Source of the DNA: Escherichia coli O157:H7
Lineage (GTDB): Bacteria; Pseudomonadota; Gammaproteobacteria; Enterobacterales; Enterobacteriaceae
NCBI RefSeq assembly: GCF_013167455.1
Contig: NZ_CP038328.1
Direction: 5' to 3' (one strand)
DNA: 64,000 bases
Part shown: piece after piece, positions 30,919-31,687 of the stretch
Numbering within the stretch: position 1 is the stretch's first letter
Layout: the number at the start of each line of letters is the position of its first letter
Program-made: the position numbers and the translations under genes
The notes under the pieces: generated by a model
Databases searched by the model: none
The model's input: the letters and a program-made list of their open reading frames with translations, nothing else
Told to the model about the DNA's origin: nothing

Positions 30919-31090
30919 CACTTATTTTCCCGGCTCGCTTTTGCGGGCCTTTTTTGTATCTGCGCCACGCCCGGCACATACCAACCACAGAGCCTTTCGG
31001 GGGGGGGGAGCTTACGGAGTGGTCAGTGTGACTTTCTCTGTGGGCAGATCGCTCCCGGGCGTTGGCTCACCCACCCAAAGGAACGTCACG

Positions 31091-31523
31091 ATGTTTGGTA
31101 TTTTTGGTAAAAAAAGCCCGCAGAGCGGCAACGGAAATTAAAAAGTTTGAAAAACGCGATCTGGCACAGGTGGTGATTAACGCCGCATACCTGGTGGCCT
31201 GTGCAGATGGTGAATGTGAGGCATCCGAGAAAGCGAAGATCGAACAGGTACTGCGTAATCAGCCTGCGCTGTCCGCGTTTACGTCAGAAATTAATGCGAT
31301 TAGCGCAACCATTATCGGTCAGCTGGATACGAACTTTAAAACTGGTCGTCGTGCGGCGTTACGTGAGATCGAGGATGTGAAACACGATACGCGTGAAGCG
31401 GAAGATGTGCTGGATGTGGCGGTGGCCATTGCGGAGGCAGACGGCGAAATTGAGCCGGAAGAGCGCAAGGTGCTGGAAGAGATTGCCGGTGTTCTGGGTC
31501 TTCGTCTGGAGAATCACCTGTGA
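31091..31523 (+). pseudogene. TerB-like (tellurite-resistance TerB domain) gene, apparently frameshifted at an A7 run (31108-31114)
   Basis: ATG 31091 with AAGGAA RBS gives MFGIFGKK then an early stop; the long TerB-like frame (...DLAQVVINAAYLVACADGECEASEKAKIEQV...EADGEIEPEERKVLEEIAG...) has no good start codon. Confidence 0.5.
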
Positions 31524-31687
31524 CGGTAAAACTGCGCCTGACTGTGGCTGCACTCCTGCTGTTTCTGGTGGTGATGGTGGATTTCACCAGCAGAATCATG
31601 TCGGTGCTGGCGGATGGGGTGCTGGTCTGCGGCATTGTGGTATTGCTGTGGCCGGTGATAAAAAGAAACAGCCTGCATAATGCTTGA
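31520..31687 (+). CDS. Candidate 55-aa two-TM membrane protein coupled to the TerB-like gene
   Basis: GTG start overlapping the TerB-like stop (GTGA); VTVKLRLTVAALLLFLVVMVDFTSRIMSVLADGVLVCGIVVLLWPVIKRNSLHNA. Confidence 0.3.
   Translation: MTVKLRLTVAALLLFLVVMVDFTSRIMSVLADGVLVCGIVVLLWPVIKRNSLHNA

Follow-up and report, generated by a model that had tools for sequence, protein, structure and literature searches.

A frameshifted, probably decaying tciA allele and its conserved leader in the stx-equivalent slot of an Escherichia coli O157:H7 prophage

Does a prophage gene of the TerB family that is broken close to its start still supply a protein, and if not, is the break a sequencing error, a reversible switch or a step in the loss of the gene? 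The question is raised by a locus in a lambdoid prophage of E. coli O157:H7, from which the window (the whole 64-kb stretch of DNA that was analysed) originates. A first-pass annotation had noted that translation from a well-placed ATG at 31091 ends after 16 codons, that the TerB-like frame behind it lacks a start of its own, and that a run of A residues separates the two frames. It proposed a homopolymer sequencing error, a phase-variable or pseudogenised gene, or a TerB plus membrane-partner module in the slot which corresponds to that of stx. All features described below are on the plus strand unless otherwise indicated.

The gene order in this part of the prophage is RusA, the Q antiterminator, the pR′/tR′ region, three tRNA genes, a terminator, a leader of approximately 130 bases, tciA, tciB, an STnc100 sRNA, a nanS-p/SASA esterase gene and the holin and lysis genes. 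Between 30442 and 30550 a promoter-like TTGCAA-17-TATATT stands ahead of a palindromic terminator. The Rfam matches of this stretch, of the isrK/isrJ type, are weak and sub-threshold, and it probably corresponds to the prophage's pR′ short transcript and tR′. The three phage tRNA genes (30669–30918; ARAGORN, Rfam and RefSeq annotation) carry a CAT anticodon, Arg-TCG and Arg-TCT. The first of these (30669–30744) is called Met by ARAGORN and tRNA-Ile by RefSeq; presumably it is a phage tRNA of the ileZ type, reading Ile after lysidine modification. A terminator scan found an intrinsic terminator-like hairpin with a T run (30932–30955), which closes the tRNA unit, and all homologs examined have an equivalent hairpin ahead of their leader. 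At the other end, the 3′ boundary of the cassette is formed by an STnc100-family sRNA (31692–31864; Rfam 101.8 bits, E=2.6e-22), which is kin of PasD and EcOnc27 and has a terminator downstream of it at 31889–31915. The sRNAs PasA, PasC and AgvB were weighed as candidates for the leader region and rejected, being located elsewhere. RefSeq also places a partial pseudo-CDS (‘hypothetical protein’) on the minus strand at about 31882–32025; it is incomplete at both ends and overlaps the start of nanS-p.

In Stx2 phages STnc100/EcOnc27 lies directly downstream of stx2B (PMC12711010), and tciA–tciB therefore occupy the slot of stx. The flanks are those of the moron slot of lambdoid and Stx phages, namely Q, tRNAs of the ileZ-argN-argO type, the STnc100 sRNA, the SASA/NanS-p esterase and the holin, whereas the cargo here is tciA–tciB with its own leader and not stxAB. 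The position of the sRNA relative to the cassette differs elsewhere: in a Pantoea prophage an STnc100-family sRNA lies upstream of the leader instead (locus L099, 2175–2373), and tciA is the gene upstream of it in Klebsiella phage 1 LV-2017 (locus L316, 2260–2448).

The body of tciA (31095–31523) is annotated in RefSeq as WP_001303509.1, a protein of 142 aa read from a TTG, and is recognised by Pfam, PDB and PHROG matches. TciA matches Pfam TerB (PF05099) with E=2.8e-11 over residues 31–138 and the TerB structure PDB 2JXU with E=2.9e-7, and the repaired protein matches PHROG 632 over its full length from residue 1 (E=2.5e-68). The adjoining gene, tciB (31520–31687), encodes a small DUF3927 protein of 55 aa with two hydrophobic segments (Pfam DUF3927, E=3.7e-17; PHROG 1470, labelled ‘TciB-like’, E=5.6e-30). 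The TGA stop codon of the TerB frame (31521–31523) overlaps the GTG start of tciB at 31520, so the GTGA coupling to a two-TM ORF of 55 aa that had been described from the letters was seen again; tciB also has an RBS of its own, GGAGAA at 31507–31512. The locus thus has the arrangement by which the cassette is recognised, a TerB-like gene immediately 5′ of a DUF3927 gene. As a member of the TerB family tciA has the profile match, and an intact ORF from the conserved N-terminus is missing.

The cassette tciA–tciB is already known. The names are attached to the pair in phage records, for example that of phage JLK-2012, and in phage P1; the tci name itself comes from homology only. Adjacent tciA/tciB pairs are found in P1, P7, N4-like phages, Klebsiella and Escherichia siphophages and lambdoid phages, and also in Pantoea, Salmonella and Serratia prophages. 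Jumbo Erwinia phages have terB followed by a small ORF, and phage 434 has kept tciB without tciA. The proposal that a module of TerB and a membrane partner fills the slot equivalent to that of stx is supported by a pair that is named in P1 and adjacent in many unrelated phages. One protein of E. coli PA11 (P0012, 197 aa, named ‘zinc-finger family protein’ in its source) has TciA and TciB as a single ORF, a fusion that is probably due to an indel at the GTGA junction.

The closest known counterpart is the P1 pair, in which a TerB-family protein of approximately 143 aa is likewise encoded directly 5′ of a small DUF3927 membrane protein. The P1 genes adjoin phage tRNA genes, belong to the same PHROG 632 and PHROG 1470 and are dispensable for lytic growth, both tciA and tciB having been found non-essential in a CRISPRi screen (PMC10695390). 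They differ from those of the window in that TciA is only about 51% identical and that a third gene, tciC, is present in P1, while the cassette of the window is part of a lambdoid late operon, in a prophage, and has a frameshifted tciA. A more distant counterpart is TerB of the terZABCDEF tellurite-resistance/phage-inhibition operon, which shares with TciA the Pfam TerB domain and two A.ADG....E motifs. However, TerC, TerD, TerE and TerZ partners are absent here, the partner being instead the 55-aa DUF3927 protein, and the sequence similarity of TerB to TciA is remote (E=2.9e-7). Against the PADLOC defence models TciA gave only a marginal match to PDC-S48 (E=0.0058 over 35 residues) and TciB gave none; NCBIfam returned only sub-threshold DjlA and YmfL matches, and a literature search for DUF3927 returned nothing relevant. 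On account of the TerB relationship, the conserved gene pairing and the non-essentiality in P1, intact TciA, as a cytoplasmic TerB-fold protein, and TciB, as an inner-membrane protein, are probably partners in a common task at the inner membrane while the phage grows or is kept as a lysogen. On the same evidence, their role would probably be in the handling of membrane or metal stress, or in the exclusion of other phages or colicins.

The start from which the intact gene is read can be recognised from its relatives. An N-terminus of the form MFG[IFML]F.KK.RRA is shared by 120 database homologs of at least seven genera, from phages of Escherichia, Klebsiella, Salmonella, Serratia, Pantoea, Enterobacter and Erwinia. 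The ATG at 31091, which is preceded by the Shine-Dalgarno sequence AAGGAA (31078–31083; conserved in leader alignments), is identified as the tciA start by the family N-termini and the PHROG 632 match from position 1, and translation from it yields a 16-codon ORF, MFGIFGKKSPQSGNGN*, which ends at the stop codon 31139–31141, as had been described. Codons 7–9 contain the run of A residues. It is indeed seven bases long, although it occupies 31109–31115 and not 31108–31114 as had been stated, and the extra A lies 18 bases after the ATG. When one A is removed from the run, the ATG frame is fused with the TerB frame, as the first-pass annotation had predicted, and gives MFGIFGKKARRAATEIKKFEKRDL...; the same annotation was mistaken in holding that the TerB frame lacks a start of its own, since it has two in-frame start codons, TTG 31062 and TTG 31095, the latter being the RefSeq/PGAP choice for WP_001303509.1. 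There are 20 A/T runs of seven in the 64-kb window, so A7 is not in itself unusual.

Comparison with intact homologs, which had been proposed as a check, found in-frame alleles with A6 or with AAAAAGAAAA. Among the 83 loci first collected there are three N-terminal DNA types. The A7 type (...GGTAAAAAAAGCC) is out of frame; the A6 type (...GGTAAAAAAGCC) is in frame and encodes MFGIFGKKARR; the third type (ATGTTTGGAATCTTCAAAAAGAAAACC) is in frame and encodes MFGIFKKKTRR. The ATGTTTGGAATCTTCAAAAAGAAAACC type differs from the others by third-position changes, which are synonymous only in the ATG frame. Since MFG[IFML]F.KK.RRA is conserved across genera, ATG 31091 is taken from these comparisons to be the ancestral start and A7 to be a one-base insertion when set beside the alleles that are in frame, those with A6 and with AAAAAGAAAA. 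Other, independent N-terminal lesions occur in E. coli copies, where a G is deleted in four loci and forms beginning MESSKRKPAE... and MNLQKK... are found.

The A7 allele is genuine, stable and widespread. A 781-base region containing it is 100% identical in several independent complete O157:H7 chromosomes, and the region is present in about 790 of 5426 complete E. coli genomes, mostly in more than one copy each. A 103-base query with A7 was examined in rows sampled evenly down the ranking of 773 complete-genome records; one gap in 103 bases corresponds to 99.0% identity, and A6 and A7 were separated by listing the best rows and by the spread ranks. Exact A7 matches extended at least to rank 517 of the 773, while the same query with A6 gave three exact records and about 548 with one gap (of about 551). 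Records with the A7 haplotype come from many laboratories and include serotypes O157, O26, O103 and O111, and it is on this account that A7 is regarded as real and stable. For the A7 run, the suggestion of a homopolymer sequencing error is refuted by the identity of the 781-base region in independent genomes together with the run of exact matches.

Within the A7 lineage, tciA has accumulated further damage. In 30 of 51 A7 loci GAG has become TAG at E46, a residue invariant across the family, and these copies are labelled ‘internal stop’ by PGAP. When polymorphisms were polarised with phage JLK-2012, those essentially restricted to the A7 lineage were 11 nonsynonymous (N) to 3 synonymous (S) and all others 7 N to 40 S (Fisher p=1.8e-5), a contrast between polymorphic sites, not independent events, in a sample biased toward the query and with evident recombination. 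Besides the E46 stop, the changes of the A7 lineage include Y37C, which adjoins the first ADG motif, D117E, which falls within the second one, and R125C; the tciA of the window has A27V and Y37C relative to intact alleles. The TerB frame of the window is without further disruption, which counts against decay. As judged from these polymorphisms, the N:S pattern is that of a gene released from constraint.

The window, then, has a copy of tciA–tciB in which the A7-frameshifted tciA is probably decaying, and not an error or a switch. The tciA of the window would be a pseudogene or a strongly under-expressed remnant. Ribosomes starting at ATG 31091 would make a 16-residue peptide and then stop, and the TerB frame would be reachable only from a TTG four bases downstream of that ATG, or via rare slippage. 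The lineage evolves as though it were unconstrained, with its mostly N polymorphism, the E46 stop in sister copies, Y37C, a broken pair in the leader and the loss of an invariant U. In contrast to tciA, tciB is intact and has its own RBS, and it may still be made.

The alternative which survives best, although it is unlikely, is that tciA is intact and functional from TTG 31095, giving a TciA of 142 aa whose first six residues are harmlessly different. PGAP annotates WP_001303509.1 in many genomes and treats it as intact, the open frame is unbroken in the window, and MVFLVKKARR... retains the hydrophobic-then-basic character of MFGIFGKKARR. Nevertheless, the MVFLVKKARR N-terminus is restricted to E. 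coli A7 alleles, where MFG..F..KK is found across genera, and, by what is established about initiation, an ATG at a distance of eight bases from GGA is expected to prevail over an overlapping TTG at a distance of 12. The allele is also widely distributed (O157, O26, O103 and O111), and a dead gene would not obviously be so widespread; such a spread of a dead allele can, however, be explained by prophage exchange and hitch-hiking. A full-length tciB in 52 of 54 A7 loci speaks for an intact cassette, while the relaxed evolution of the A7 lineage, with the nonsense mutation in most of its sampled copies (30/51), speaks against a functional tciA within it. Under the preferred reading of a decaying gene, TTG 31095 is possibly a source of low-level rescue.

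Much less probable is that A7 works as a phase-variable switch between A6 and A7, or as a site at which slippage is programmed, be it transcriptional or +1 ribosomal on AAA-AAA-A, restoring MFGIFGKKARR... in some cells or transcripts. A +1 slip of tRNA-Lys from AAA at 31112–31114 to 31113–31115 would enter the TerB frame exactly, but seven A's are fewer than the runs known for efficient slipping. Moreover, the slippery run is not conserved in homologs, which have A6 in frame, AAAAAGAAAA, AAAGAAA or other sequences; the homologs, being in frame and without the run, exclude a slippage that is programmed and conserved. Three records do have A6 in the haplotype of A7, and strain 86-24 is A7 in its wild type and A6 in a sequenced derivative, yet A7 is invariant in about 99.5% of haplotype records, the A6 cases are possibly long-read homopolymer errors, and the A7 lineage is without purifying selection. 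The frequent differences in length among close isolates that mark a contingency locus are thus not seen at the A7 run (three of about 551 records). The two 86-24 assemblies, A6/G12 in the derivative (L083) and A7/G11 in the wild type (L092), differ only at homopolymers; the A6 of the derivative, which is among the three exceptions, may have come about by a genuine slip in passage or by a long-read error. Of the earlier suggestion of a phase-variable or pseudogenised gene, phase variation at A7 is not supported by the count of A6 records, while pseudogenisation is upheld by the intact homologs and the relaxed selection.

That the frameshift and the G10 tract upstream of it are both assembly or sequencing artefacts is scarcely credible: homopolymers are error-prone, and the length of the G run varies between near-identical assemblies (G11 versus G12 in 86-24), but identical A7 plus G10 is found in independently sequenced genomes, including eight 100% rows among 60 spread rows, particular flanking SNPs go together with A7, and other linked differences accompany the copies with G6, G7 and G8.

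The second feature of the locus is the 5′ leader of tciA (30962–31090), in which a structure was recognised by alignment of homologous leaders. Hairpin h0 pairs 30962–30966 with 30973–30977. Helix b pairs CCACAGAG (30985–30992) with CTCTGTGG (31036–31043), hairpin e pairs 31022–31025 with 31029–31032, and helix c, which covers the RBS, pairs CCUUU, the G run and AGC (30993–31011) with GGCUCACCCACCCAAAGG (31064–31081). For comparison, 67 distinct leaders retaining the T that interrupts the G run were obtained by two pattern scans of viral contigs, with chance matches filtered out. A C-G pair of h0 that is present in 67 of these 67 other leaders is C-A in the window, where h0 is broken by G>A at 30976.

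The leader is widely conserved. The entire 130 bases are conserved in upstream alignments from Salmonella, Pantoea, Buttiauxella and Franconibacter, and in Klebsiella phages the leader keeps 84% identity, with TciA down to about 40%. In jumbo phages of Erwinia and Salmonella a core of it can still be recognised ahead of terB, once more directly behind a tRNA gene; a blastn search with the leader did not list P1 among its matching phage records. In helix b, CCACAGAG/CUCUGUGG is one of four compensated versions, the others being CCGCAGAG/UCUGCGG, CCAUGGAG/CUCCAUGG and CCGUAGAG/CUCUACGG; over a set of 20 diverse sequences, 98.8% of the cells of this helix are paired, and three of its eight pairs change on both sides. 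In helix c, the RNAalifold consensus pairs CCUUUC.GGGGUGAGC with GGCUCACCC..AAAGG, with 99.7% of cells paired and one compensated pair. In leaders of the Buttiauxella type both arms of helix c are shortened by one base in coordination; these leaders were misaligned by one column in MAFFT, and some ‘unpaired’ cells are artefacts of this alignment. A divergent leader before an HNH-like gene keeps helices b and c with new compensations, and its inner hairpin and the alternative partner have been swapped for AAGCA/UGCUU and AAGCAG/CUGCUU, which are self-consistent.

The G-U pairs fit the sense strand only, which points to a leader that acts as RNA. Shuffle and slide controls favour the leader structures, with the qualification that the sequences are related and the structures were derived from these same sequences. 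The leader of the window folded alone has an unremarkable z-score of -1.46, its structure being visible only by comparison, and Rfam 15 gave no covariance match with E<=1 over 30925–31090 (+) or in four homologous loci. The chances are about even that this leader of approximately 130 bases is an undescribed phage cis-regulatory RNA, in which the predicted RBS-sequestering helix would be set against alternative pairings, b and e versus c and d. It is the only element of the locus that may be new. In its predicted long-range pairing of CCUUU with AAAGG of the RBS, and in the conservation of its alternative pairings, it resembles RBS-sequestering leaders such as translational riboswitches, RNA thermometers and the RNase III-processed leader of lambda N; it differs from them in being without an Rfam 15 match.

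The same leader, or a divergent form of it, was also seen before genes other than tciA, in loci L239 (about 1030–1155), L238 (about 4750–4860) and L212 (minus strand). The cargo behind these leaders comprises an HNH-endonuclease-like gene, a 281-aa gene and a small ORF with a signal-like start. The 281-aa gene might, as a guess, encode a TAXI/TRAP solute receptor, on the grounds of an N-terminal signal-like sequence and because phage Caitlin has a TAXI gene downstream of its terB-gp6. As a control module the leader may be portable. In Stx2a phage Stx2_14040/PPompW prophages, ISEc20 (IS110 family) is inserted at the place where the leader would have its G run (locus L319, 2601–2666). Homology to the window stops there at about 31005, tciA–tciB are absent and a gene for a terminase small subunit follows the IS; the junction of ISEc20 and leader is present in at least 11 phage records.

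The G tract which the first-pass annotation placed approximately 80 bp upstream of the ATG consists of ten bases at 30999–31008, its end being 82 bases from the ATG, and is the only G/C run longer than seven in the 64-kb window. It lies in the 5′ arm of helix c, where comparison of leaders shows that it replaces an ancestral GGGGGUG. The U of that sequence, present in 67/67 other leaders and paired with the A of GCUCACC, has been lost from the leader of the window, and the G run is therefore uninterrupted. All intact alleles have G5-T-G, whereas A7 alleles have G6 to G13 and, in an O111:H8 strain, up to G17; at the orthologous O157 locus alone G9, G10, G11, G12 and G13 are found. Frequent differences in length among close isolates are thus seen for the G tract, and part of these may be sequencing error; the tract is indeed hypervariable among copies. 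It is a derived run and a hypermutable one, and the conserved leader around it is here in a decaying copy. By thermodynamic prediction longer G runs would occlude the RBS more, to which little weight is given. A place for the tract in a promoter spacer was also considered and dropped, as a sigma-70 scan found nothing between the terminator and tciA. With the contingency loci of Haemophilus, Neisseria and Campylobacter the tract has in common its long run of G and its differences in length among near-identical strains. It differs from them in lying in a 5′ UTR, and not in an ORF or promoter spacer, and in its origin, the U that used to interrupt the run having been lost in a lineage under decay; the A7 run within the ORF, moreover, does not vary. 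Two further loci (L020 and L169) have a leader of the Klebsiella/Fostie type in which the U is lost and a G8 run is present (CAGGGGGGGGAGCC), with a 3′ end of the E. coli type; this G8 is either an independent expansion or a recombinant.

For E. coli, these comparisons indicate that a very common prophage gene of EHEC, named as an intact ‘tellurite resistance TerB family protein’ by RefSeq, is an N-terminally frameshifted and probably decaying allele. Because the allele is frameshifted and many of its sister copies are interrupted by an internal stop, a tally of ‘TerB’ genes in STEC genomes is not to be taken as one of functional genes. The cassette itself uses the same slot as stx and is conserved from temperate to jumbo lytic phages, and its leader, with its compensatory changes, is better conserved than the protein encoded behind it (84% nucleotide identity versus about 40%). 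If the structure proposed for it is true, the leader may be a new translational control element of phages, and the G tract would be a hypermutable repeat in its anti-Shine-Dalgarno arm.
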